In this document: positions 46,049-61,396 of the stretch, piece by piece
How positions within the stretch are numbered: position 1 is the first letter of the stretch
Layout: every line of letters starts with the position of its first letter
Assembly: GCA_015231405.1 (NCBI GenBank)
Contig: JADGBR010000007.1
Span: 40,791 to 104,790 of the forward strand
DNA length: 64,000 bases
Source of the DNA: Candidatus Omnitrophota bacterium
GTDB lineage: Bacteria; Omnitrophota; Gorgyraeia; Tantalellales; Tantalellaceae
Reading direction: 5' to 3'
Translations under genes and position numbers: made by a program
The notes under the pieces: model-generated
Databases searched by the model: none
Seen by the model: only the letters and a program-made list of their open reading frames with translations
What the model was told of the DNA's origin: nothing

Positions 46049-46591
46049 ATGGAACGCCGTTCGATATTTCACTTGGTATCCAAGATATCCAGGCAGGCCG
46101 GAGTTAACTGTGTGCTGATCGGCGGATTTGCCGTTAATTATTACAAAGTCACAAGGCAGACAGCTGATGTCGATTTTATGATAACGGAAGAGGATTATAG
46201 AAAGATCGAAGCTTTGATCAAAGAGGCAGAATACAAAGAGGATCAAAGCCATGGGAATTTTATACGGTTAAAGAGTACCGGCAGCAAGTTCTTTATGGAT
46301 GTCGATTTTATGTTCGTAGATAAAAATACGCTGGATAAGATCCTGGACAATGGAAAAAAAATGACCATAGCGGGGCAGGAATTTACAGTGCCTTCTTTGA
46401 ACGATCTCATCGCGTTGAAACTCCATGCCCTTAAATACAATGCTAAACTGAGAGAGACTAAAGATCTGCCGGATATTATCGATCTTATCAGGATAAACAA
46501 TATAGAATATAAGAGCAAAGACTTTCACGATCTATGTTTTAAGTATGGTAATGCCGAGACATACGAAAAGATAATGAAAACACTGGAGTAA
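46049..46591 (+). CDS. Nucleotidyltransferase-fold protein (AbiEii/MJ1651-like minimal NTase?)
   Basis: VLIGGFAVNYY...DVDFMI pattern. Confidence 0.35.
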   Translation: MERRSIFHLVSKISRQAGVNCVLIGGFAVNYYKVTRQTADVDFMITEEDYRKIEALIKEAEYKEDQSHGNFIRLKSTGSKFFMDVDFMFVDKNTLDKILDNGKKMTIAGQEFTVPSLNDLIALKLHALKYNAKLRETKDLPDIIDLIRINNIEYKSKDFHDLCFKYGNAETYEKIMKTLE

Positions 46592-46865
46592 AAAGACTTG
46601 GATAAACTGAATTTTCCCGTTATTAAGGGATTAAAACCCAATAAAAAGATCCTGTCGATGGACGAATACCTTGAATTCGTTACATTCAATTTAAAATACA
46701 CCGTCGACAGGGAGGCAGTCCGCCGGTGGAAACGGAAACTTCGGGTAAATGTCCCTTTTGTGATCAAATAAAGGCGGGAAGCAGCCTTTCTCCCTTGGGG
46801 TTTTATAATTTGACAACGATTGCGATTTTATCTATAATTGCTTTTGAGATCGCACCCAATTTCGT

Positions 46866-46941
46866 TCCTCGGTAGCTCAATGGTAGTAGCGACTGGCTGT
46901 TAACCAGTAGGTTGTAGGTTCGAGTCCTACCCGAGGAGCCA
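46866..46941 (+). tRNA. tRNA-Asn (anticodon GTT)
   Basis: Hand-folded cloverleaf: acceptor TCCTCGG/CCGAGGA, anticodon stem ACTGG/CCAGT with loop CTGTTAA, T-arm GTAGG-TTCGAGT-CCTAC, discriminator G, encoded CCA. Confidence 0.85.
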
Positions 46942-46953
46942 TTCTTATATTGA

Positions 46954-46984
46954 GGGCCCATTCGCAAGAATGGGCCCTTTTCGT
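46954..46984 (+). terminator. Rho-independent terminator after tRNA-Asn
   Basis: Perfect 10-bp stem GGGCCCATTC-GCAA-GAATGGGCCC followed by TTTT. Confidence 0.65.
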
Positions 46985-47369
46985 TTAAATGGCTCCGAGG
47001 GTAGGACTCGAAGGGAGATCTGGAGCCTTTAATCAAGGTCTGGTCCGAGAGAGCGAGGACCAGACACACAACCGACAGATCGGGTGGCCGACCGGAGGCC
47101 TGCTATGTTTTTTGAGGAGCGAAAGCGACGAACAAAAACATGCTAGCGGGCCGAAGGCGCCGAGTCCCGCTTTCGTACGTTAAAACAAAACCAAATTGCC
47201 CCCCTATTTCCCTTGTCAAACCCACCATAAAATGCTATTGTAAACCCACGTCAGGGGGAATGTTTGACATGCGAGACCAGTCACAAACCTCAAATAACCA
47301 AAGCGTCACAAAAAAGGCACTGGGCTAACCCGGTGCCTTTTTTGCTTTTGAAAGAAAATAACGTCAATT

Positions 47370-49787
47370 ATGCGGCTTTATTCAGGAACATCAAAACAGT
47401 TTATTCAAGATGCGATTCATAATCAGATTGCAGAGAAGTTAAAAAACGCTTTTTTCGGCTATTACCGCTACAATCCTTCTCCTGCTGAGATAAATTCTTG
47501 GCGAAATTCGCTACGTTCAATGTCCCAAGTATTTCAACACGCAGATCTATTGGACAATGGAGTTCTTCTCGAGTATCAACTGCCTCTAACTTCGAGACGC
47601 TTAGATTGCATGATCTGTGGCCGTGATCAGCAAAAAACTGATAATGCGGTTATCGTGGAGTTGAAACAATGGGATAAGTGCGAAGAAGCCTATGGTGATA
47701 ACGAAGTACTTACGTGGGTAGGAGGTGCAAAACGCGAAGTATTGCATCCGTCGGTTCAAGTGGGACAATACCACCTTTATCTGGAAGATACCCATACAGC
47801 ATTTAACAGCGAAGATGATCCTGTTGTCCTGAATGCCTGTACTTATTTGCATAATTACAATTACTATTCTGAGGACATTATTTATTCGGATAAATTTGCT
47901 CAGACTCTTGAGAAGTACCCCTTATTTACAGCTGATGATGTGGAAAAATTAACGGGTTATTTGCGTAATAGACTTTTGGCCGGTGATGGCTTGGATGTTT
48001 TGCAGAGGATCGAAGAAAGTAAATATCGGCCGAATAAGAAGCTCATGGATCATGTTGGTAATATTATAAAAAACAAAACAGAATATATACTGCTAGATGA
48101 ACAACTTATTGTTTACGATGCGGTCTTGGCATGCGCGAAGCGAAGCTTCCATGATAAGCAGAAGTCAATAATTGTTGTAAAAGGTGGTCCGGGAACGGGT
48201 AAGTCTGTTATAGCGATTAATTTAATGGCTGATTTGCTATTAAAGGGATACAACTCTCATTATGCCACTGGCTCTAAGGCCTTCACGGAAACACTGCGGG
48301 AAATCATAGGAACTCGAGGATCTGTGCAGTTTAAGTATTTTAATAGTTACAGCCAAGCTGAAGAGAATGCCATAGATATCCTGATTGCTGATGAAGCCCA
48401 CCGCATACGCGAGACAAGCAATAGCCGATTCACACCCCGTTCGAGTCGATCAGAAAAGACGCAAATTGAGGAATTGCTTCGAGCGTCTAAAGTCGCGGTA
48501 TTTTTCATTGATGACGATCAAGTGGTGCGTCCAAATGAAATAGGTTCGGTTGATTATATTAAGAATATTGCGGGCGATAATAAAATAAAGCTCCACGAAT
48601 ATGAATTAGAAGCTCAGTTCCGTTGTAATGGTTCTGATGCGTTTGTGAGCTGGATAAACAATACGTTAGGGATAAAAAGAACTGCCCATGTTATTTGGGA
48701 TCAGCATGAAGAATTTGATTTCAAGATATTTCCCAGTCCCCTTGAACTTGATAATGCCATACGGAAGAGAGTCGCGCGGGGTTCTACGGGGAGAGTAACG
48801 GCCGGGTTTTGCTGGGACTGGTCATTACCTAACGGCGATGGCACATTGAAAAACGATGTGATAATTGGAGATTATAAGCGGCCATGGAATGCTAAACCCG
48901 AAGCTCAACGTCTGGCGCTGGGTATCCCCAAAGCTTCTCTGTGGGCATACGAACCTGTCGGCATTGATCAGGTAGGATGTGTCTATACCGCTCAAGGTTT
49001 TGAATTCGATTACGTTGGAGTTATTTTCGGCGAGGATGTGGTATATGATTTTGACAAGCAAGAATGGGTTGGCAATCCCGCTAAGTCTTCGGACAGAGTT
49101 GTTAAACGGTCTAAAGACAAATTTGCCGATTTAGTGAAAAATACCTATAGGGTTTTATTGAGTAGAGGGATGAAGGGCTGCTATGTATATTTCATGAATA
49201 AAGATACTGAACGTTTCTTTAAGTCACGGATTGAAGGTGATAATACACGGGTAGACGAACCCTTAACAGTATCTAAACTACTAGATAGCGAGTCGGATTT
49301 TCTTGAGCGTATTTTACAGGATGTTGACAGTTCTTTAAAATATAAGGAATATTTACCCGTTTATACTTTGACTGCAGCTGCTAGCGCGTTCGGCGAGGGT
49401 ATGGATGTTAGGGAAAAGGGTTGGATTAAAGTTAATATTGGAAAGCCACTAAACAGAAAATTGTTCGTTGCAAAAGTGGTTGGAAAATCAATGGAGCCGC
49501 TGATCCCAGATGGCAGCTATTGTGTATTTAGCGCGAATGTTGTTGGTACGCGGGCAAACAAAATAGTATTAGTGCAACACAATAGCATTTCAGATCTAGA
49601 TACCGGTGGAAGATATACCATAAAAAAGTACACGAGTAAGAAACGATACGCGTCAGATGAAACCTGGGAGCACGAAGAGATAGTCCTACTGCCAATTAAT
49701 CCCGCATATGCGCCGATTATAATACCAAATACCAACGAGGATGAATTTATGGTAATCGCTGAGTTTATTACCATAATAAAGAATTAG
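47370..49787 (+). CDS. PD-(D/E)xK nuclease / DUF2075-type P-loop ATPase fused to a C-terminal LexA-like S24 peptidase domain
   Basis: N-terminal nuclease-like D...VELK motif. Walker A GGPGTGKS and Walker B LIADEAH. C-terminal GKSMEP (Ser) ... TIKKY (Lys) ... VLLPINPAYAPI matches the LexA/UmuD catalytic-domain pattern. Confidence 0.7.
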   Translation: MRLYSGTSKQFIQDAIHNQIAEKLKNAFFGYYRYNPSPAEINSWRNSLRSMSQVFQHADLLDNGVLLEYQLPLTSRRLDCMICGRDQQKTDNAVIVELKQWDKCEEAYGDNEVLTWVGGAKREVLHPSVQVGQYHLYLEDTHTAFNSEDDPVVLNACTYLHNYNYYSEDIIYSDKFAQTLEKYPLFTADDVEKLTGYLRNRLLAGDGLDVLQRIEESKYRPNKKLMDHVGNIIKNKTEYILLDEQLIVYDAVLACAKRSFHDKQKSIIVVKGGPGTGKSVIAINLMADLLLKGYNSHYATGSKAFTETLREIIGTRGSVQFKYFNSYSQAEENAIDILIADEAHRIRETSNSRFTPRSSRSEKTQIEELLRASKVAVFFIDDDQVVRPNEIGSVDYIKNIAGDNKIKLHEYELEAQFRCNGSDAFVSWINNTLGIKRTAHVIWDQHEEFDFKIFPSPLELDNAIRKRVARGSTGRVTAGFCWDWSLPNGDGTLKNDVIIGDYKRPWNAKPEAQRLALGIPKASLWAYEPVGIDQVGCVYTAQGFEFDYVGVIFGEDVVYDFDKQEWVGNPAKSSDRVVKRSKDKFADLVKNTYRVLLSRGMKGCYVYFMNKDTERFFKSRIEGDNTRVDEPLTVSKLLDSESDFLERILQDVDSSLKYKEYLPVYTLTAAASAFGEGMDVREKGWIKVNIGKPLNRKLFVAKVVGKSMEPLIPDGSYCVFSANVVGTRANKIVLVQHNSISDLDTGGRYTIKKYTSKKRYASDETWEHEEIVLLPINPAYAPIIIPNTNEDEFMVIAEFITIIKN

Positions 49788-49897: not shown

Positions 49898-50078
49898 TAA
49901 CAGTGGTGTAATATGTTATGCACAGTGTCTGCGGGGATGCGGGGAGGGGAGAGTTTAAGCGAAGGTTATGCAAGAAAGCCGGCAGATGGGTGTCAAGGCG
50001 TAAAAAGGCACCCGGATTTGTTTCATAACTAACGGTGGTGTAATATGTTATGCACAGTGTCTGCGGGGAGAACGGGGC
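49898..50078. repeat. Two 40-bp direct repeats (49898-49937 and 50039-50078): TAAC(A/G)GTGGTGTAATATGTTATGCACAGTGTCTGCGGGGA
   Basis: Identical except for one base; located between the S24-fusion gene and its truncated 3' duplicate. Confidence 0.8.
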
Positions 50079-50093
50079 GGCTCGCGCAATGGA

Positions 50094-50318
50094 TTGGTGG
50101 TTTTAGTTGAGTCTCGTTTGGTGAGGGATCCGGAGTCCCACCAGAGTTTCACGATCAAACGATATCACAGCGAGAAGCAGGATCTTGGTGGTGGTGAATG
50201 GCGGCATAAGAAGATCACGCTATCGCCTGACAATAAGGATTTTCACGATATCGTGCTGAAAGATATTACCGGCGGGGATTTTCATGTAGTAGCCGAATTT
50301 GTTGAAGTGATCGTATAA
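50094..50318 (+). pseudogene. Truncated duplicate of an S24-domain C-terminus, a remnant of a paralogous DUF2075-S24-like gene
   Basis: VVLVESRLVRDPESHQSFTIKRYHSEK...HVVAEFVEVIV aligns with IVLVQHNSISDLDTGGRYTIKKYTSKK...MVIAEFITIIK of the upstream gene. Confidence 0.5.
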
Positions 50319-50335: not shown

Positions 50336-51502
50336 ATGAAAAATGCCTTTATTGTTATGCAAATTGGTAATGCTGAGCTCGACTCTGTTTGCGAGCAAGC
50401 TATTGTCCCTGCCCTCAAAAAATGTGGTCTAGATCCCAAGCGAGTAGATAAGCATAATCAGGGAGGACTGCTGAAAAGCGAGATCGTAAATTTTATTGAA
50501 TCCTCGGAGATTATAATCGCCGATCTTACTAACGAAAGGCCAAATTGTTATTTGGAAGTTGGCTACGCGATGGGGTTAGATAAGTTTAGGCATCTGATAC
50601 TGACTGCGCGAGAGGATCACAATCACGATAGCCCAAATTATATAAAAACCGGTCCCAAGATTCATTTTGACTTAGCTGGTTATGATATTTTATTTTGGGA
50701 TCCGAAAAAACTCGACAATTTCAAAGATGAGCTTGAAAAGCGAGTTAAACGGCGCTTGGCTACTCTTCAAACCCCTCCCTCGAAAGAAGAAACTATTTGG
50801 GATGACGATTGGATAAATAATCATGCTGTTACCGCACATGCCAATTTAAAGAAATCAAATAAATCCGGATTTATGGAAATTCGAATGGTCATACCCAATT
50901 CAGGCCTCAATATTCCACAAAGTGAATTGCTGAGTGTTGCTGAACAGGCGACAATCCATACTTTTGGATGGCCAATCGGTGTTGTTCTGAAAAACAGGGA
51001 CGAATACCGACCGCGTCCTAAAACAGATGGTATTGTTGCTGATATAGACACAGGGGATCATTATGATTATTGGGCGATTAGGAAAGATGGCGCGTTCTAT
51101 CTCTTGAAAAGCTTATTCGAAGATATGCGAAAGCCGGGGCATCTATTTTTTAATACGCGTATTGTGAGGATTACGGAGGCGCTTTTGTATGCAGTGCGCC
51201 TTTATACTGGATTTAAAGTTCCAGCAGATTCCCGAGTCGTTATTGGAATAAAGCATGGTGGATTAAAAGATAGAATGCTCGTTTCTTCAAGTTTTTCGCG
51301 AGAACTTAGTTATGAAAGAAAATCGATCGAGGATGAGGTGTACACTGAGATTGACACTACTCTTGCTAAGATCGAGTCACAGTTACCCGATCAGGTTGAG
51401 GCACTTACAAAACCGCTATTCGTATTATTTGATTACTTTGAAATCGGCAGATCTGTTTTGGATGATATTGTTAATAAGTTTGTTGAAGGTAAGGTTACTT
51501 GA
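50336..51502 (+). CDS. Protein with an N-terminal nucleoside 2-deoxyribosyltransferase-like (NDT/SLOG-type) domain; C-terminal 250 aa unknown
   Basis: IIADLTNERPNCYLEVGYAMGL resembles the NDT family D...E[LI]G[YF]A catalytic-Glu motif. Confidence 0.45.
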   Translation: MKNAFIVMQIGNAELDSVCEQAIVPALKKCGLDPKRVDKHNQGGLLKSEIVNFIESSEIIIADLTNERPNCYLEVGYAMGLDKFRHLILTAREDHNHDSPNYIKTGPKIHFDLAGYDILFWDPKKLDNFKDELEKRVKRRLATLQTPPSKEETIWDDDWINNHAVTAHANLKKSNKSGFMEIRMVIPNSGLNIPQSELLSVAEQATIHTFGWPIGVVLKNRDEYRPRPKTDGIVADIDTGDHYDYWAIRKDGAFYLLKSLFEDMRKPGHLFFNTRIVRITEALLYAVRLYTGFKVPADSRVVIGIKHGGLKDRMLVSSSFSRELSYERKSIEDEVYTEIDTTLAKIESQLPDQVEALTKPLFVLFDYFEIGRSVLDDIVNKFVEGKVT

Positions 51503-51954
51503 TTTGTCCGAAGTTCTGATATAAACATTTTCTGCTCTTTGGGATTTTTAAGCATCTGCCGTAGCTGACGCTCGGTTATTAGCCGTTTTGGCATGGGATC
51601 GCCCAAGGCTTCAACGGCTTCGACCAGCGAAGGGTTAAGGTCAAGAAGGCTCGTATATTGCCAGATCCTGACCCGGGAGATGCCGACTTTGCGGGCAAGG
51701 TCGCTTTCGTTCTTGGCATGGCCTGATTCGATCATTCGGGCGTATTCCTTGGCCCGGAAGATGGGGTTCCGGTAGGTCTTTGGCGGTTTGGGGCGGATCC
51801 TGCGGGCTTCGTCAGGCGTCTGGCCTTCGCGGACGATGGAAATGATGCGATGATTCCATTTTCCCTGTTCGGTCACAAGCGCGGTGAAGTGCCATAACAG
51901 GCCTGAATCTGAATACCGTCCGGGGAGCCAATTTTCAGAAACCCCTACAGACAT
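51433..51954 (-). CDS. ParB/KorB-like HTH protein; start uncertain because the start codon sits inside a hairpin, and there is a 70-bp convergent overlap with the previous gene
   Basis: NPIFRAKEYARMIESGHAKNESDLARKVGISRVRIWQYTSLLDLNPSLVEAV resembles the ParB HTH region. Confidence 0.35.
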   Translation of the reverse strand: MSVGVSENWLPGRYSDSGLLWHFTALVTEQGKWNHRIISIVREGQTPDEARRIRPKPPKTYRNPIFRAKEYARMIESGHAKNESDLARKVGISRVRIWQYTSLLDLNPSLVEAVEALGDPMPKRLITERQLRQMLKNPKEQKMFISELRTNQVTLPSTNLLTISSKTDLPISK

Positions 51955-51990
51955 TTAGTTTGTAGGGGTTTTTCATTTTGGTATAATCTC
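51939..51990 (+). promoter_or_regulatory. Hairpin + T-run + TATAAT element, copy 1
   Basis: AAACCCCTACA ... TGTAGGGGTTT stem, then TTTTCATTTTGG, then TATAAT. A near-identical architecture sits at 53818-53867. Confidence 0.45.
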
Positions 51991-52498: not shown

Positions 52499-53071
52499 GT
52501 GGATATGAGCGTATTACTCGGAACCAGACTCCGCAACAAGCTGTTAACTTACGCGTTCTCCCGCGCGGACGGTGAGTTTTATGTGCGCGAGGCTGCCTCG
52601 GTCATAGGAGAGGACCCCGGCAACCTTTCAAGGGAGCTTAAACGCCTTGAGGGCGAGGGTCTTTTTGTTTCCCGCACTTCCGCGAACGCCAGATTTTATT
52701 CGGTCAATAAGAACTATTATCTTTTCAATGAGCTCAAGGCCGTTGTCGCCAAAACGTCGGGCGTTGAGGCCAGACTGAAGGACATAGCTGCGTCGCACAA
52801 AGAAATAGAGCTCGCGTTCATTTACGGATCATACGCGAAAAATACCGAGAAAAAAGGTTCTGATATCGACGTTGTCTTTGTAGGAAGATCTCTTCCCGAA
52901 AAGGTCATTACTGATATCAACTTGCTTGAGAGCGAGATCTCAAGAGAGATCAACTACACGTTCTACAAAAAAAACGACTTTGAGAAAAAACGCCTTGAAA
53001 AAGGCGGTTTTCTCGCCGAAGTTCTCGCCGGGAAAACCCTGGTACTGAAAGGGGAGGTCCATGAAAGATAA
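52499..53071 (+). CDS. HTH + minimal nucleotidyltransferase (MNT-type) protein
   Basis: N-terminal winged-helix-like region; NTase motif IYGSYAKNTEKKGSDIDVVFV. Confidence 0.6.
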   Translation: MDMSVLLGTRLRNKLLTYAFSRADGEFYVREAASVIGEDPGNLSRELKRLEGEGLFVSRTSANARFYSVNKNYYLFNELKAVVAKTSGVEARLKDIAASHKEIELAFIYGSYAKNTEKKGSDIDVVFVGRSLPEKVITDINLLESEISREINYTFYKKNDFEKKRLEKGGFLAEVLAGKTLVLKGEVHER

Positions 53072-53144
53072 ACTGGTAGAAAGGCTAATTAAGGAAGAAA
53101 AACTTTAAAAACAGACATCCGGGATAATTCAGGTAGAAAAACTT

Positions 53145-53534
53145 TTGAAAGAAGCCGTAATTGATATGGGAGAGGCATCGAAGATCAGAAATATTTCCGA
53201 AAGGGGAACATATCTTCTTGCCTACGGGGCGATGCTTAAAACCGGAAGGGCTCTCGTTCTTTTCCTGGGATATGTCCCGGATGACGGGGCGCAGCATAGG
53301 ACCGTGACAGAAATTGTCGCCGCGTGTCTGGGAGAAAAATTCAATAAAGTTACGTCTCATTTTGAAAGAATGCGCAGAAAAAGGAACGATCTTACATATG
53401 AGGCGGGCATTCTCCTTTCCGGAAGCGAAGCGGAAGAGGCGTTGTCCGACGCGAAAAAGCTTATCAGTGAAATATCTAACCACATAAAGACCAAGGATCC
53501 ACAGCTGCGGTTCGATTTTGAAGTTGAGTCATGA
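53145..53534 (+). CDS. HEPN-like / NTase-substrate-binding-like partner of the MNT gene (TTG start)
   Basis: Position directly downstream of the MNT gene. RMRRKRNDLTYEAG resembles the Rx4-6H HEPN motif but with Y/T in place of H. Assigned by context. Confidence 0.4.
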   Translation: MKEAVIDMGEASKIRNISERGTYLLAYGAMLKTGRALVLFLGYVPDDGAQHRTVTEIVAACLGEKFNKVTSHFERMRRKRNDLTYEAGILLSGSEAEEALSDAKKLISEISNHIKTKDPQLRFDFEVES

Positions 53535-53817
53535 TTTATTATACAGCCGGTGAAAAACTATCTGGATCAATATTTTGAGAAAGGCTCTTGAGTTGCGACC
53601 CGAGGGGTGCACTTATCGGGTATAAGGTTTTATGTTAGGCGAGAGGCAAGAGGATATAACCTTTGGCCTCGCGCCTATGGTGAAGTGACGGCTGACTAGG
53701 CCTGACGCCAAGTTTACCTGTGATCGACAAATTCCGACTAACTAGTGGTAGAGTTCTTCTTTAGGCAGGGCCAATAATGCACTGCGGTATTCGTTGATGA
53801 AGGGAGCTAAACTTCCA

Positions 53818-53867
53818 AAGCCCTTACAGACATTTAGTCTGTAAGGGCTTTTCTTTTTTGATATAAT
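53818..53867 (+). terminator. Hairpin + T-run + TATAAT element, copy 2 (terminator-like, 14-bp perfect stem)
   Basis: AAGCCCTTACAGAC-ATTTA-GTCTGTAAGGGCTT then TTCTTTTTTG then TATAAT. Confidence 0.5.
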
Positions 53868-53930
53868 CCTTTATAAGAGATCATACTTTATCTAAAGACA
53901 CTTCCATAAAACAATACAATAATTTCCAAA

Positions 53931-54271
53931 ACAAATCCGGGTAATTGAATGGCTAATACCCGGATTTATTTTGTAATGTCTTGACTATAAACAGCTTGCA
54001 GAAAGTGTCTGCCTGGGGTATATAAACAGCTTGCAGAAAGTGTCTGCCTGGGGTAAATACCCGGATTTATTTTGTAATGTCTTGACTATAAACAGCTTGC
54101 AGAAAGTGTCTGCCTGGGGTAAAGTGTCTGCCTGGGGTATTGACTATAAACAGCTTGCAGAAAGTGTCTGCCTGGGGTCAACAAATCCGGGTAATTGAAT
54201 GGCTAATACCCGGATTTATTTTGTAATGTCTTGACTATAAACAGCTTGCAGAAAATGACTGCCTGGGGTAT
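53931..54271. repeat. Nested direct-repeat (iteron-like) array upstream of kaiC
   Basis: A 91-bp unit (AACAAATCCGGGTAATTGAATGGCTAATACCCGGATTTATTTTGTAATGTCTTGACTATAAACAGCTTGCAGAAAGTGTCTGCCTGGGGTA) occurs at 53931 and 54181. Its 31-bp core AAACAGCTTGCAGAAAGTGTCTGCCTGGGGT occurs 5 times plus a partial, at irregular spacing. An internal 11-bp inverted repeat is AAATCCGGGTA/TACCCGGATTT. Confidence 0.85.
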
Positions 54272-54353
54272 TTCCAGGACGTTAGGGAAGGCCACTGGGC
54301 CCCGTTCTCGGTATTTCATGTAGGTCGCTAGGACGTGAAAAAAGGAGATCAGA

Positions 54354-55817
54354 ATGGCAAAATCAAAAAGTGTGTTGGGGGTGGGCAGAGTAATGCCTGA
54401 GCTACCTAAAGTTATGACCGGCATTCAGGGGTTAGATGAGATAACATTCGGAGGACTGCCAAAGGGGCGACCTACCCTTGTGTGCGGAGGCCCCGGTTGC
54501 GGCAAGACGCTCTTGGCTATGGAGTTTCTTTGCAGGGGCGCTCTGCAATATAACGAACCCGGCGTCTTTATTGCCTTCGAAGAGAAAGAGAAAGATCTGG
54601 AGGAAAATTTCGCCTCGCTCGGTTTCGATTTAAAATCGCTTGTAAAGCACAAAAAACTCGTTATCGATTATGTCTACATCGAAAGAAGCGAGATCGAAGA
54701 GACGGGCGAATATGATCTTGAAGGACTCTTCGTCCGTTTAGCGGCCGCCATTGATTCGATCGGCGCAAAAAGAGTAGTTCTCGATACCATCGAGGCCCTA
54801 TTTTCAGGGTTTTCAAATGAATCGATCCTGCGCGCGGAATTAAGGCGGCTATTCCGCTGGCTTAAAGATAAGGGAGTCACGGCAGTAATTACCGGCGAAA
54901 AAGGCGAGTCACTTCTAACAAAGCATGGATTGGAAGAGTATGTCGCGGATTGCGTCATACTCCTCGATCACCGCACGGTTAATCAGATTGCAACGAGACG
55001 TCTTAAGATAATAAAGTATCGCGGTTCAAAACACGGAACCAACGAATTCCCGTTCCTTATAGGCGAAACCGGTATCTCTGTTTTTCCCATGACGAGCTTA
55101 CTTTTATCAAGCACTGTGAGCTCTCGGCGTATATCATCCGGCATAAAGAGCCTCGATGAGATGTTGGGCAATAAAGGCTATTACAGGGGGAGCACTATCC
55201 TTGTATCCGGATCAGCAGGAAGCGGGAAGACCAGCTTTGGCGCCAAGTTTGTGGACGCCGTATGTGAGACTGGCGAACGCGCGTTATATCTCGCTTTTGA
55301 GGAGCCTGAAGACCAGCTATCCAGAAATATGAAGAGCATAGGTATCGATCTTAAGAAGTGGATAGATAAAGGGCTATTGAAGATCAATGCTAACAGGGCA
55401 ACCCTGTGCGGCCTTGAGATGCATCTTGTCATGGCGCATAACGCAGTAAGAGATTTTAAGCCGTCGGTCGTTGTCATAGATCCGATCACGACACTGATAG
55501 GCGCAGGGATGGCGGATGAGGCAAAAGCGATGATGGCCAGGCTTCTCGATTATCTTAGGAACGAAGGCATCACCGTTTTGGCGACAGACCTCTCGCTTGG
55601 CAGTACTCATGGGGATAGCGCGGAAATAGGCATATCATCTCTTTGTGACACGTGGATAAGGCTATCCATGGAAACTCAAGGATACAGGAGGATGCGCAGA
55701 CTTAGTATCATAAAATCAAGAGGCATGAAACATGCCCATGATACAAAAGATTTTATGATAACCGACAACGGGCTCGAGATGAAAGATATTCCCGGCCGAA
55801 AGGAGGACTTAAGATGA
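54354..55817 (+). CDS. kaiC: KaiC-like double RecA-domain ATPase
   Basis: [16 protein letters not shown], two Walker A motifs ([16 protein letters not shown]), 487 aa; strong RBS AAAAGGAGA. Confidence 0.85.
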
Positions 55818-56098
55818 AGAAGGCCGCTTATAGACTTAAATTATATGTAGCTGGGACAACGCCTAAATCATTAGAGGCTTTCGCTAATCTTAAAAAGATA
55901 TGCGAGGAGTATCTTAAGGGGCAATATTCTATCGAAGTAATAGATCTTATCAAAAACCCCAAGCTTGCCAAAGGCGACCAGATAATCGCGATACCGACAC
56001 TTGTAAGACACTTGCCCGAACCGATAAAGAAGATCATAGGCGATCTTTCCAACAAAGAGAAGGTTCTTGTGGGATTAAATATTATAAATAAAGGATAA
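55814..56098 (+). CDS. kaiB: KaiB, copy 1
   Basis: [25 protein letters not shown]...[25 protein letters not shown]; 94 aa. Confidence 0.85.
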
Positions 56099-56100
56099 AA

Positions 56101-56433
56101 ATGGCTAAACAAAAAAACGATATCGGAAAACAATTGGAACAGCGAACAAAGAAAAAAGAAATGAAAAAATATGTCCTTCATCTCTATGTCGCTGGTCTTT
56201 CTCCACGGTCACAAAAAGCGATAGATAATATAAAGAAACTATGCGATGAGCACTTAAAAGGTCAGTATGAACTTGTGATTCAGGATATATATAAGAACCC
56301 TGTGATGGCCAAGAACAGTCAGATACTTGCCGCGCCTACTCTTGTCAAAGAATTACCTTTGCCTCTACGCAAGTTTGTGGGGGATATGTCTAACACGGAA
56401 AGATTAATTCTCGGATTGGATCTTAAGGAATAA
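56101..56433 (+). CDS. kaiB: KaiB, copy 2 with basic N-terminal extension
   Basis: LHLYVAGLSPRSQKAIDNIKKLCDEHLKGQYELVIQDIYKNPVMAKNSQILAAPTLV; 110 aa. Confidence 0.8.
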   Translation: MAKQKNDIGKQLEQRTKKKEMKKYVLHLYVAGLSPRSQKAIDNIKKLCDEHLKGQYELVIQDIYKNPVMAKNSQILAAPTLVKELPLPLRKFVGDMSNTERLILGLDLKE

Positions 56434-56439
56434 TAATAA

Positions 56440-58915
<2,476 letters not shown>

Positions 58916-58926
<11 letters not shown>

Positions 58927-59278
58927 ACGAATTTTGATTATTGAAGATGATATCCATCTCGCCGATTCGCTTTCCGAGCTTTTAGAGGATGAAGGCTACT
59001 TTGTGGAGTGCGCCAAGGACGCAGTTAAGGGAGAGATCCTTATAAGAAAGGGCAACTTCGACGTCATTCTGCTGGATTACAAAATGCCCTTACTTAGCGG
59101 CATAGACATACTCAAAAAGCTTAAAGCCGATAATATAAGAAAACGTATTTTTATTGTCTCAGGAAGACCTTCTACGGAGCGATCTCTCAAAGAAGAAGAT
59201 GTTTTTGATATGATCAGCGGCATAATCGTAAAACCCATTAATATTGAAGCTTTTCTTGAGAAAATAAAAAATGCATAA
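58916..59278 (+). CDS. Stand-alone receiver-domain response regulator (CheY-like)
   Basis: ILIIEDD ... DVILLDYKMP ... phosphoacceptor pattern; 120 aa; overlaps the kinase stop by 11 bp. Confidence 0.85.
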
Positions 59279-59999: not shown

Positions 60000-60608
60000 G
60001 TGATAAATATGACAGAATCCATTGAGAATAGAATACTTCACCGGATCATTGGCAAGAAAAAGGGGTGGGTGTTTGCCCCAACTCATTTTTTTGATCTTGG
60101 AAATCGTGCCGGGATAGATCAGGCCTTAAGCCGGTTGGTTCGGTCTCGGGATATCCGCAGATTAACGCGTGGTCTTTATGATTATCCCCGGAAGGATCCG
60201 ACTTTTGGAGATGTGCCTCCAAGCGTTGATCGTCTTGCCGCCGCACTTGCTGAAAAAGATAATCTTAAGATCCAACCTTCCGGAGCATACGCGGCCAACT
60301 TGCTTGGCATGTCTCATCAAGTACCGGCAAAGATTGTTTTCTTAACAGACGGATCTTCCCGTATGGTTCAGATCGGCAATTGGCATATTAAGTTAAAAAA
60401 GACAACACCCAAGAATATGGCGACCGCTGGGCGCATGAGCGGCTTGGTTATTCAAGCCTTACGTTATATGACGCAAGAGAATATCGATGGCAAAATTATT
60501 AAAAAACTTAAAGGAAAATTATCAGTCGAGGACAAAAAACAGCTTATGAGTGATATTCGTTATGCCCCGGCTTGGATAGGTGAAATATTTAAACAGCTAA
60601 ATTCGTAG
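60000..60608 (+). CDS. AbiEi-like / DUF6088-type winged-HTH protein (putative antitoxin/regulator)
   Basis: GWVFAPTHFFDLGNRAGIDQALSRLVRSRDIRRLTRGLYDYP pattern. GTG at 60000 or ATG at 60009. Confidence 0.5.
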   Translation: MINMTESIENRILHRIIGKKKGWVFAPTHFFDLGNRAGIDQALSRLVRSRDIRRLTRGLYDYPRKDPTFGDVPPSVDRLAAALAEKDNLKIQPSGAYAANLLGMSHQVPAKIVFLTDGSSRMVQIGNWHIKLKKTTPKNMATAGRMSGLVIQALRYMTQENIDGKIIKKLKGKLSVEDKKQLMSDIRYAPAWIGEIFKQLNS

Positions 60609-60655
60609 CATTTTCTTGGCTTTTATACCAGTAAGCCAGTAAGGATGGAGGACAT

Positions 60656-61396
60656 ATGAAAGAGATTTTAAGTAAGGTTGAAGAGGCTCAGGCGAAAATA
60701 AACGCATTGCGTCCATTTTGTAATGAAATGAACCATCAAATAAAGGAATATTTTCGTATCGGGCTCACCTATTCAAGCAATGCGCTTGAGGGCAACTCTC
60801 TGACGATATCGGAAACAAAAGTGGTCATCGAGGATGGGCTTACCATAGCCGGAAAGCCGCTTAGAGATCATTACGAGGCCACGGGCCACAGTGACGCGTT
60901 CGATCACATGTATGCTCTCTCTACAGGAAAAACGATAACGGAAGAAGATACTAAAAAATTGCACGCGCTCTTTTATCACCGCATTAAAGAAGGGGATGCG
61001 GGGGTGTATCGAAAAGTCCAGGCCATTATTACCGGCTCTCAATATCCATTGCCTACGCCTGAGGCATTGCCGGGAATGATGCAGAAATTTATTAAAGATC
61101 TGCCCAATTTAAAAATAGACAACCATCCGGTTGTCTATGCCGCCAAGCTCCATAAAGAGTTTGTGTTCATTCACCCGTTTGTTGATGGCAATGGGCGGGT
61201 AGCAAGACTTTTAATGAATGTGGCGCTTATGCAGGCAGGATACATTATTGCGATCATTCCGCCGCTCAAACGGTCGGAATACATCAGCGCTCTTGAAAAA
61301 TCGCATAAAATTGATGCGGATTTTATTGAGTTGATAGCGTCATGCGTCTATGAAACTCAGAACGATCTATTACGCATGGCTAATGGGAAAAGTTGA
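60656..61396 (+). CDS. fic: Fic-family protein (class II, with intrinsic N-terminal inhibitory motif)
   Basis: HPFVDGNGRVARLL active-site motif. N-terminal SNALEG matches the (S/T)xxxE(G/N) inhibitory motif. Confidence 0.9.
   Translation: MKEILSKVEEAQAKINALRPFCNEMNHQIKEYFRIGLTYSSNALEGNSLTISETKVVIEDGLTIAGKPLRDHYEATGHSDAFDHMYALSTGKTITEEDTKKLHALFYHRIKEGDAGVYRKVQAIITGSQYPLPTPEALPGMMQKFIKDLPNLKIDNHPVVYAAKLHKEFVFIHPFVDGNGRVARLLMNVALMQAGYIIAIIPPLKRSEYISALEKSHKIDADFIELIASCVYETQNDLLRMANGKS

Follow-up and report, generated by a model that had tools for sequence, protein, structure and literature searches.

A nuclease–DUF2075 helicase of Candidatus Omnitrophota with a LexA-type S24 tail that recurs on unrelated restriction enzymes and may act as a self-cleavage switch

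A stretch of 64,000 nucleotides from Candidatus Omnitrophota bacterium (contig JADGBR010000007.1 of assembly GCA_015231405.1), in the following called the window, contains at positions 47370-49787 of its forward strand a complete gene (stop codon included) for a protein of 805 amino acids. Judged from its sequence this protein is an unnamed defence-type nuclease-helicase that resembles Nhi of S. epidermidis (SERP2475) in architecture, with a PD-(D/E)xK nuclease and a DUF2075 helicase of the SF1 type joined by a flexible linker to an S24 autoprotease unit as known from LexA, UmuD and lambda cI. We suggest that this C-terminal unit is a self-cleavage switch that senses RecA filaments on single-stranded DNA (ssDNA), called RecA*, and turns the nuclease-helicase off during DNA damage, and we give this reading a probability of about 45%. 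Self-cleavage by the unit and its stimulation by RecA* would be expected from the behaviour of the S24 family, and the evidence leans towards a switch working in the off rather than in the on direction.

The first-pass annotation, made from the letters of the window, had proposed an open reading frame with these borders and a three-part architecture of nuclease, DUF2075 ATPase and S24 domain. The frame is present exactly so and is intact, and its N-terminus MRLYSG is the same start as in more than 100 full-length homologues (60-90% identity). All three parts are real and keep their catalytic residues, and a likeness to this architecture by chance is rejected. The nuclease domain (approximately residues 1-230; 47370-48059) carries the candidate catalytic residues D79 (47604-47606), E97 (47658-47660) and K99 (47664-47666). 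Residues 265-608 (48162-49193) form the DUF2075 or Schlafen group 3 helicase-ATPase, to which the Pfam family SLFN-g3_helicase/DUF2075 (PF09848) matches with an E-value of 1.2e-89 over model positions 1-352 of 354. In this domain lie the Walker A sequence GGPGTGKS (residues 272-279; 48183-48206) and the sequence LIADEAH (residues 338-344; 48381-48401); GGPGTGKS and DEAH are invariant in the core family, and the protein shows the full-length match with Walker A and Walker B by which the DUF2075 family is recognized. The linker that follows (residues 609-660; 49194-49349) is weakly conserved and variable in length, and orthologues without an S24 unit stop at about residue 622-627.

The S24 unit comprises residues 661-805 (49350-49784). 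Peptidase_S24 (PF00717), the second Pfam family proposed for an HMM search besides PF09848, also matches, at residues 694-798 with 35.8 bits (gathering score 23.3; E 7e-9). An AlphaFold2 model of residues 640-805 reaches a pLDDT of 93, and the 38 best PDB matches of this model in Foldseek are all LexA, lambda cI or UmuD' (probability 1.0, TM up to 0.75). Alignment with E. coli LexA (residues 74-198) by hhalign (E 1.9e-6) places the catalytic serine S707 in GKSMEP (49488-49490) on S119 and the catalytic lysine K752 in YTIKKY (49623-49625) on K156. The S24 fold, the dyad superimposable on LexA and the proximity of homologues to defence genes (see below), on which the first-pass annotation had staked its interpretation, are therefore all found. 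No Pfam family of helix-turn-helix (HTH) domains matches the 805-residue protein, and because its N-terminus consists of nuclease and helicase it is not a repressor of the LexA or cI kind. Comparison with the homologous loci L001 and L002 yields a non-synonymous divergence (pN) of 0.07 against a synonymous divergence (pS) of 0.8 for the S24 part, and a pN of 0.04-0.08 against a saturated pS of 0.7-0.9 across all domains including S24. By this measure, in which the saturation of synonymous sites leaves no reliable dN/dS ratio, the tail is held by purifying selection.

Ahead of the catalytic core runs the cleavage-site strand LPVYTLTAAASAFGEG (residues 662-677; 49353-49400), in which the scissile bond is predicted from the motif to be A671/S672 (49380-49385). 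The family consensus of this region reads LPVYSLxAA(A/C)GxFGEG and is closely similar to the cleavage region of lambda cI, PVFSHVQA/GMF, the slash marking the bond. The copy in the window reads AAA/S-A-F.

How far this tail extends beyond the DUF2075 proteins was addressed by an exhaustive profile search with the S24 module in 1.84 billion representatives, which returned 2,725 proteins with E ≤1e-3, among them 678 with E ≤1e-30. A word-indexed search with the S24 tail alone gave mostly short fragments, and the exhaustive HMM search was needed for the diversity of partners to appear. The following counts of partners and residues refer to the best 150 of the 2,725 proteins, of which 145 were new. 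In these 145 representatives the module nearly always closes the chain at its very C-terminus, and at least 35 unrelated groups can be told apart among its N-terminal partners. According to Pfam they include Type ISP enzymes (N6_Mtase / Eco57I / Type_ISP_C) and MmeI-like Type IIL enzymes, HsdR together with its characteristic C-terminal domain, HsdS and Type III Res subunits, AlwI, LlaJI, a DpnI-like protein and McrC, as well as HNH nucleases, RE_endonuc, DUF3427 and a DEAD/MZB/REase protein of 1,900 residues; the classes covered include the restriction enzymes of Types I, ISP, IIS, IIL, III and IV. Type ISP and MmeI-like partners have a methyltransferase in the same polypeptide as the S24 unit. 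The gene for AlwI-S24 lies directly 3' of a tandem D12 adenine methyltransferase and is therefore part of an ordinary restriction-modification system. Exceptions are the Type ISP and MmeI-like proteins P0227, P0271 and P0245, in which the S24 unit is internal and is followed by 180-200 further residues of no named kind.

The catalytic serine and the catalytic lysine are each present in 145 of the 145 representatives. At the predicted bond P1 is alanine in 112 and cysteine in 30 of them, P1' is glycine in 130, and the x-Phe that follows P1' is kept in 140. An invariant dyad and a kept cleavage site on such unrelated partners indicate, as far as residue patterns can tell, selection for self-cleavage itself, beyond selection for a folded domain. 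A family-specific feature, by which the module differs from LexA, cI and UmuD, is an insert with conserved Trp and His after the catalytic lysine.

These counts also bear on the possibility that the S24 unit is mainly a structural module whose cleavage is incidental. The C-terminal domains of LexA, cI and UmuD' dimerise and bind in the groove of the RecA filament (PDB 8trg, 8gms, 8gmu, 8gmt), and Nhi functions as a dimer (10.1101/776245). Restriction enzymes of Types I, ISP and III and those of the FokI-like IIS kind need two cooperating molecules. Such a role leaves unexplained, however, why unrelated partners keep an invariant Ser/Lys pair and, in approximately 90% of cases, the Ala/Cys-Gly site, and we regard it as quite improbable.

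The nuclease-helicase core itself, of approximately 622 residues, is widespread in bacteria and archaea. A locus scan with one genome per species gave 80 loci, and the S24 tail is found at a minority of core loci. Cores without the tail that are 83-84% identical to fused ones interleave with them phylogenetically, and S24-less cores resemble fused ones more than one another; P0089, for instance (624 residues, no S24), shares 84% identity with a fused protein but only 78% with the closest of the unfused ones. Moreover, two S24 subtypes, with GKSMEP and GESMNRRIPNG, occur on one and the same core. Because of this interleaving and of the two subtypes the tail is an accessory that has been repeatedly gained or lost.

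On the basis of these data we can outline how the switch might work. In the undamaged cell the full-length protein would be the working form, probably a dimer held together by the S24 domain. When RecA* accumulates, the S24 unit would cut itself at the (Ala/Cys)-Gly bond, which is A671/S672 in the copy of the window. The cut would strip off the dimerising tail and leave a nuclease-helicase ending in ...Ala-Ala-Ala-COOH, which to ClpXP would look like a tail of the LexA or ssrA kind. As net result the nuclease would be down-regulated as long as the host DNA is damaged, single-stranded or under-modified, and the switch would amount to a built-in restriction alleviation or autoimmunity control.

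Three considerations favour the off direction. First, the product of cleavage would be the ordinary form of the S24-less orthologues, which means that the tail is not an indispensable lock. Second, constitutive restriction enzymes with methyltransferases carry the tail, and on these a switch that turns the enzyme on makes little sense. Third, the cut would remove the probable dimerisation domain and expose an ...AAA end that resembles the ...VAA end of LexA. Neher and colleagues reportedly described in 2003 that cleaved LexA bares ...VAA-COOH as a degron for ClpXP. A comparable need is established in Type I systems, where HsdR is proteolysed after DNA damage or recombination (PMC4231737; PMC12707154). 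For Nhi a role in the sensing and degradation of replication intermediates specific to phages has been proposed, and the ssDNA-binding protein of the phages modulates immunity (10.1101/776245). In our view damaged replication forks of the host could then be endangered as well by an enzyme of this type.

Several observations weigh against this proposal. Cleavage by S24 activates UmuD instead of switching it off. Partners of Type IV (McrC and the DpnI-like proteins) are not normally aimed at the DNA of the host, and alleviation is not obviously a fit for them. As to the cut itself, the gapless hhalign alignment places the scissile bond of LexA at A670/A671, one residue earlier than the motif does, and the serine found at P1' in the copy of the window is rare (3 of the 145 representatives); in LexA an exchange of Gly to Asp at the P1' position prevents cleavage (PDB 1jhf, 8b0v). 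The LexA-like protein IrvR is RecA-independent (PMC7101444). Finally, full-length Nhi is nearly inactive as a nuclease in vitro whereas a truncated N-terminal fragment is active, and its authors wondered whether truncation belongs to the mechanism (10.1101/776245), which would fit a switch that turns the enzyme on.

In such an on switch, the direction that the first-pass annotation had proposed, the S24 tail would hold the enzyme inactive until RecA* on phage ssDNA or on replication intermediates induces self-cleavage. An active effector would thereby be set free, and abortive infection might be among the consequences. Besides Nhi and the precedent of UmuD, the completeness of the S24 unit, the selection acting on it and the defence-island context speak for this direction. 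Yet cleavage would just yield the form that S24-less orthologues have constitutively, which would reduce the tail to an additional lock that the enzyme can do without. The module also occurs on enzymes that are needed for constitutive methylation or restriction, where a start that depends on RecA* would come too late. For these reasons activation by cleavage appears rather doubtful to us, and inactivation by cleavage is the direction we prefer.

The second component of the core module is a gene for a MazG-like protein of approximately 115 residues homologous to dCTP pyrophosphatase 1 (DCTPP1/RS21-C6; PDB 6sqw, E 3.5e-17). It adjoins the core at 56 of 83 evaluable loci and at 14 of the 17 loci with an S24-fused core, mostly upstream and overlapping the start codon of the core by 4 nt (e.g., L001 9657-10004, L002 2374-2721 and L003 7651-7998). 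About one third of the family loci, including the S24-fused L032 and L046, are without it. PADLOC has no model for this partner or for its pairing with the core, and no literature on the pair was found. DCTPP1 prefers 5-modified dCTP as its substrate. Modification-dependent nucleases, on the other side, have DUF2075 proteins as neighbours (PMC6765204), and on the basis of both facts it is a reasonable conjecture that the MazG-like partner might act against phages with modified cytosine.

In the window a MazG-like gene is absent over the whole 64 kb. DNA similarity to L001 and L002 starts approximately 18 nt ahead of the ATG, which corresponds to the 3' end of their MazG-like gene, and these 18 nt seem from the alignment to be the sole remainder of an ancestral upstream MazG-like gene. 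A G+C-rich hairpin with a T tract (47309-47344, forward strand) lies 25 nt ahead of the start codon, and no promoter-like site was found between this hairpin and the ATG. Downstream of the gene follows the remnant of a second S24-bearing gene (50076-50318, forward strand), which consists of the final 80 codons (GGSRNG...TIKRY...VVAEFVEVIV) without the half that holds the serine. It is 60-75% identical to S24 tails from proteins of the DpnI-like, HsdR, Type ISP and DUF2075 kinds alike, so that none of them stands out as its source, and this pattern suggests that the S24 tail moves between genes. Its 5' side is abutted by the second copy of a 40-nt direct repeat (49898-49937 and 50030-50069, forward strand; 98% identical, 132 nt apart). 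The locus has clearly been rearranged; the open reading frame itself is undamaged.

From this the question arises whether the copy in the window is an orphan that has lost its MazG-like partner and its promoter region, has an altered cleavage site and is poorly expressed or decaying. The missing MazG-like gene, the hairpin, the trace of the ancestral upstream gene and the truncated S24 gene next door, a case of local gene decay, all suit this explanation, and so does the exchange of glycine to serine at P1', which is a single-base change (Ser AGC versus Gly GGT in the nearest relatives). Against it stand the intact frame of 2.4 kb with the catalytic residues of all three domains, the other family loci that are likewise without MazG, and the recurrence of Ser or Thr at P1' in 14 of the 145 representatives and in several lineages. 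Read-through from the strong promoter of the tRNA gene upstream is possible as well. All in all, the copy looks like an orphan, but a loss of its function seems unlikely to us.

The first-pass annotation did not recognize a named defence system in this architecture, and this judgement held, since PADLOC gives only partial matches (PDC-S41, AbiO and Nhi). Membership in Nhi by sequence was rejected, as the match (E 4e-13) covers only residues 237-422 and model positions 179-333 of 470; the AbiO match is likewise only partial. For PDC-S41 (PDLC05014) the score of the protein is 64 bits, spread over three short stretches, compared with 946 bits for a neighbouring paralogue in L002. A true PDC-S41 gene adjoins the homologues in L002 and L003. 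PDC-S41 (approximately 657 residues) is a defence candidate from the DUF2075 helicase family, and the protein of the window belongs to another subfamily. Nhi and the "Nhi-like" proteins of Millman et al. 2022, which according to the preprint of these authors combine nuclease and DUF2075 in one chain, follow the same plan and are found in defence islands: an N-terminal PD-(D/E)xK nuclease of approximately 230 residues precedes DUF2075, a domain order shared by the 805-residue protein. In sequence, however, the likeness to Nhi is limited to the P-loop region, and Nhi has neither an S24 tail nor a MazG-like partner.

With LexA, lambda cI and UmuD the tail shares the fold and the dyad and, in its family consensus, an internal Ala/Cys-Gly strand upstream of the core, with a PV(Y/F)S..AG.F motif that closely resembles the region of A111-G112 in cI. 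The cargo differs, for LexA and cI carry an HTH domain and UmuD a 24-residue arm in the place of a 620-residue nuclease-helicase, and further differences are the serine at P1' in the copy of the window and the family insert after the catalytic lysine. The restriction alleviation of EcoKI by ClpXP resembles the proposed switch as a proteolytic shut-off of a helicase-nuclease when the host DNA is at risk (PMC4231737, PMC12707154). There, in contrast, the protease acts in trans on the translocating HsdR without any S24 or RecA* step, whereas the switch considered here would be built in; the parallel is one of analogy and not of membership. The human Schlafen 11 also contains a DUF2075-type helicase domain, but it is eukaryotic, has another nuclease core and another route of damage sensing and lacks S24, so this parallel is conceptual only.

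The genomic surroundings agree with a role in defence. In the first-pass annotation a defence-island context had been assumed, and the surroundings are in fact rich in defence genes and mobile elements, both in the window and at the loci of homologues. There the neighbours include an OLD-like ATPase plus RloB, HNH, PDC-S41, AbiEii, MNT/HEPN pairs, Fic and HipA and also an integrase and the CRISPR proteins Cas1 and Cas2. Among 140 nearest neighbours from 75 loci approximately 20% match defence models, a rough estimate with no formal background. After the MazG-like gene HNH_2 endonucleases are the commonest of them (8-9 of 140); others are components of restriction systems of Types I, IIG, III and IV, PbeA, DpdF, BrxP, DrmD and HmaA. 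An HNH_2 endonuclease of approximately 235 residues that adjoins the core (e.g., L001 12426-13130) may be a third, optional component of the module. A phage origin is unsupported, as the core occurs on just 6 viral contigs and the S24 tail on none. No homologue of the copy in an Enterobacteriaceae metagenome-assembled genome was found in 5,426 complete E. coli genomes. Plasmid copies are annotated just as DUF2075 proteins, and the database labels of homologues read "DUF2075 family protein / phage repressor protein C..." or "DNA/RNA helicase domain-containing protein".

Upstream of the 805-residue gene lies tRNA-Asn (GTT; 46866-46941, forward strand) with its own consensus promoter (46810-46838) and terminator (46952-46979). 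The claim that the gene is the first one after this tRNA holds: 428 nt separate the two and no credible gene was seen between them, and in Rfam the tRNA alone was matched between 46.6 and 50.4 kb. The low-GC island that had been supposed to begin here is only partly as described. The G+C content does fall, from approximately 0.53 at 44-46 kb to 0.40-0.46 from 46 kb on, but the fall sets in approximately 0.9 kb before the tRNA and not at it. A reverse-complement copy (25 nt, 92%) of the 3' end of the tRNA (46919-46943) is found at 46988-47012, 44 nt past the tRNA and flanking its terminator, and may be the scar of an integration, an inversion or a rearrangement at the border of the island. No integrase was seen near the gene in the window. 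Adjacency to a tRNA was rejected as a trait of the whole family, being seen at 5 of 60 loci.

Three modules that resemble toxin-antitoxin systems surround the gene, namely an AbiEii/DUF2204-like nucleotidyltransferase directly ahead of the tRNA (46049-46591), an MNT/HEPN pair (52499-53534) and DUF6088 plus Fic (60000-61396). At 50336-51502 a protein of 388 residues is encoded whose N-terminus resembles TIR domains or nucleoside 2-deoxyribosyltransferases (PADLOC TIR effector E 1.7e-10; Pfam Nuc_deoxyrib_tr E 0.024, below threshold), with no family match elsewhere in the chain. It was rejected as a partner of the 805-residue gene because the genes downstream of the core differ at every homologous locus, and may be a separate defence gene. 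Further downstream a cluster of kaiC, two kaiB genes, a multi-PAS histidine kinase and a response regulator occupies 54354-59278. It is preceded, upstream of kaiC, by 5-6 irregularly spaced copies of a 35-49-nt unit, TTGACTATAAACAGCTTGCAGAAAGTGTCTGCCTGGGGTAT (53930-54276). The core of this unit, AGTGTCTGC..GGGG, also occurs inside the 40-nt repeat at 50056, with six matches versus 0.06 expected by chance. Two copies (81%) of a 57-nt element with a terminator-like hairpin lie at 51923-51979 and 53802-53858.

In open-access papers and preprints no paper on an S24 unit fused to DUF2075 or to restriction enzymes was found, an earlier description being possible, and a 2025 review of restriction-modification biology names neither S24 nor a LexA-like domain as part of a restriction enzyme or a DUF2075 protein. 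The pairing of a DCTPP1-like MazG protein with a nuclease-DUF2075 helicase is an unstudied and very widespread two-gene module of bacterial and archaeal defence islands. As restriction enzymes of all types carry the tail, the finding exceeds one odd fusion. Tentatively, and with somewhat less confidence than for the protein of the window, we propose that unrelated immune nucleases of bacteria and archaea (Nhi-like and of Types I, ISP, II, III and IV) possess in the S24 tail a portable sensor for RecA-ssDNA filaments. Upon damage the enzyme would shed this tail by self-cleavage, and its inactivation or degradation would follow. If this is true, restriction alleviation or autoimmunity control would quite generally be built into such enzymes, coupled directly to the SOS signal and without a step of transcription. 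Only in a few Type I systems, where ClpXP is responsible, is it understood how an immune nuclease spares the chromosome of its host when this is damaged, under-methylated or in recombination. For the hundreds of restriction and defence enzymes that bear it, a self-cleaving tail responsive to RecA* would solve this problem in a simple, post-translational way. Should the switch run in the on direction, it would define a new class of damage-triggered effectors. Either direction would connect the SOS signal with innate immunity, a connection not met in the searchable literature, and the data suggest a direct and so far undescribed link between the DNA-damage signal and the control of bacterial immune nucleases.

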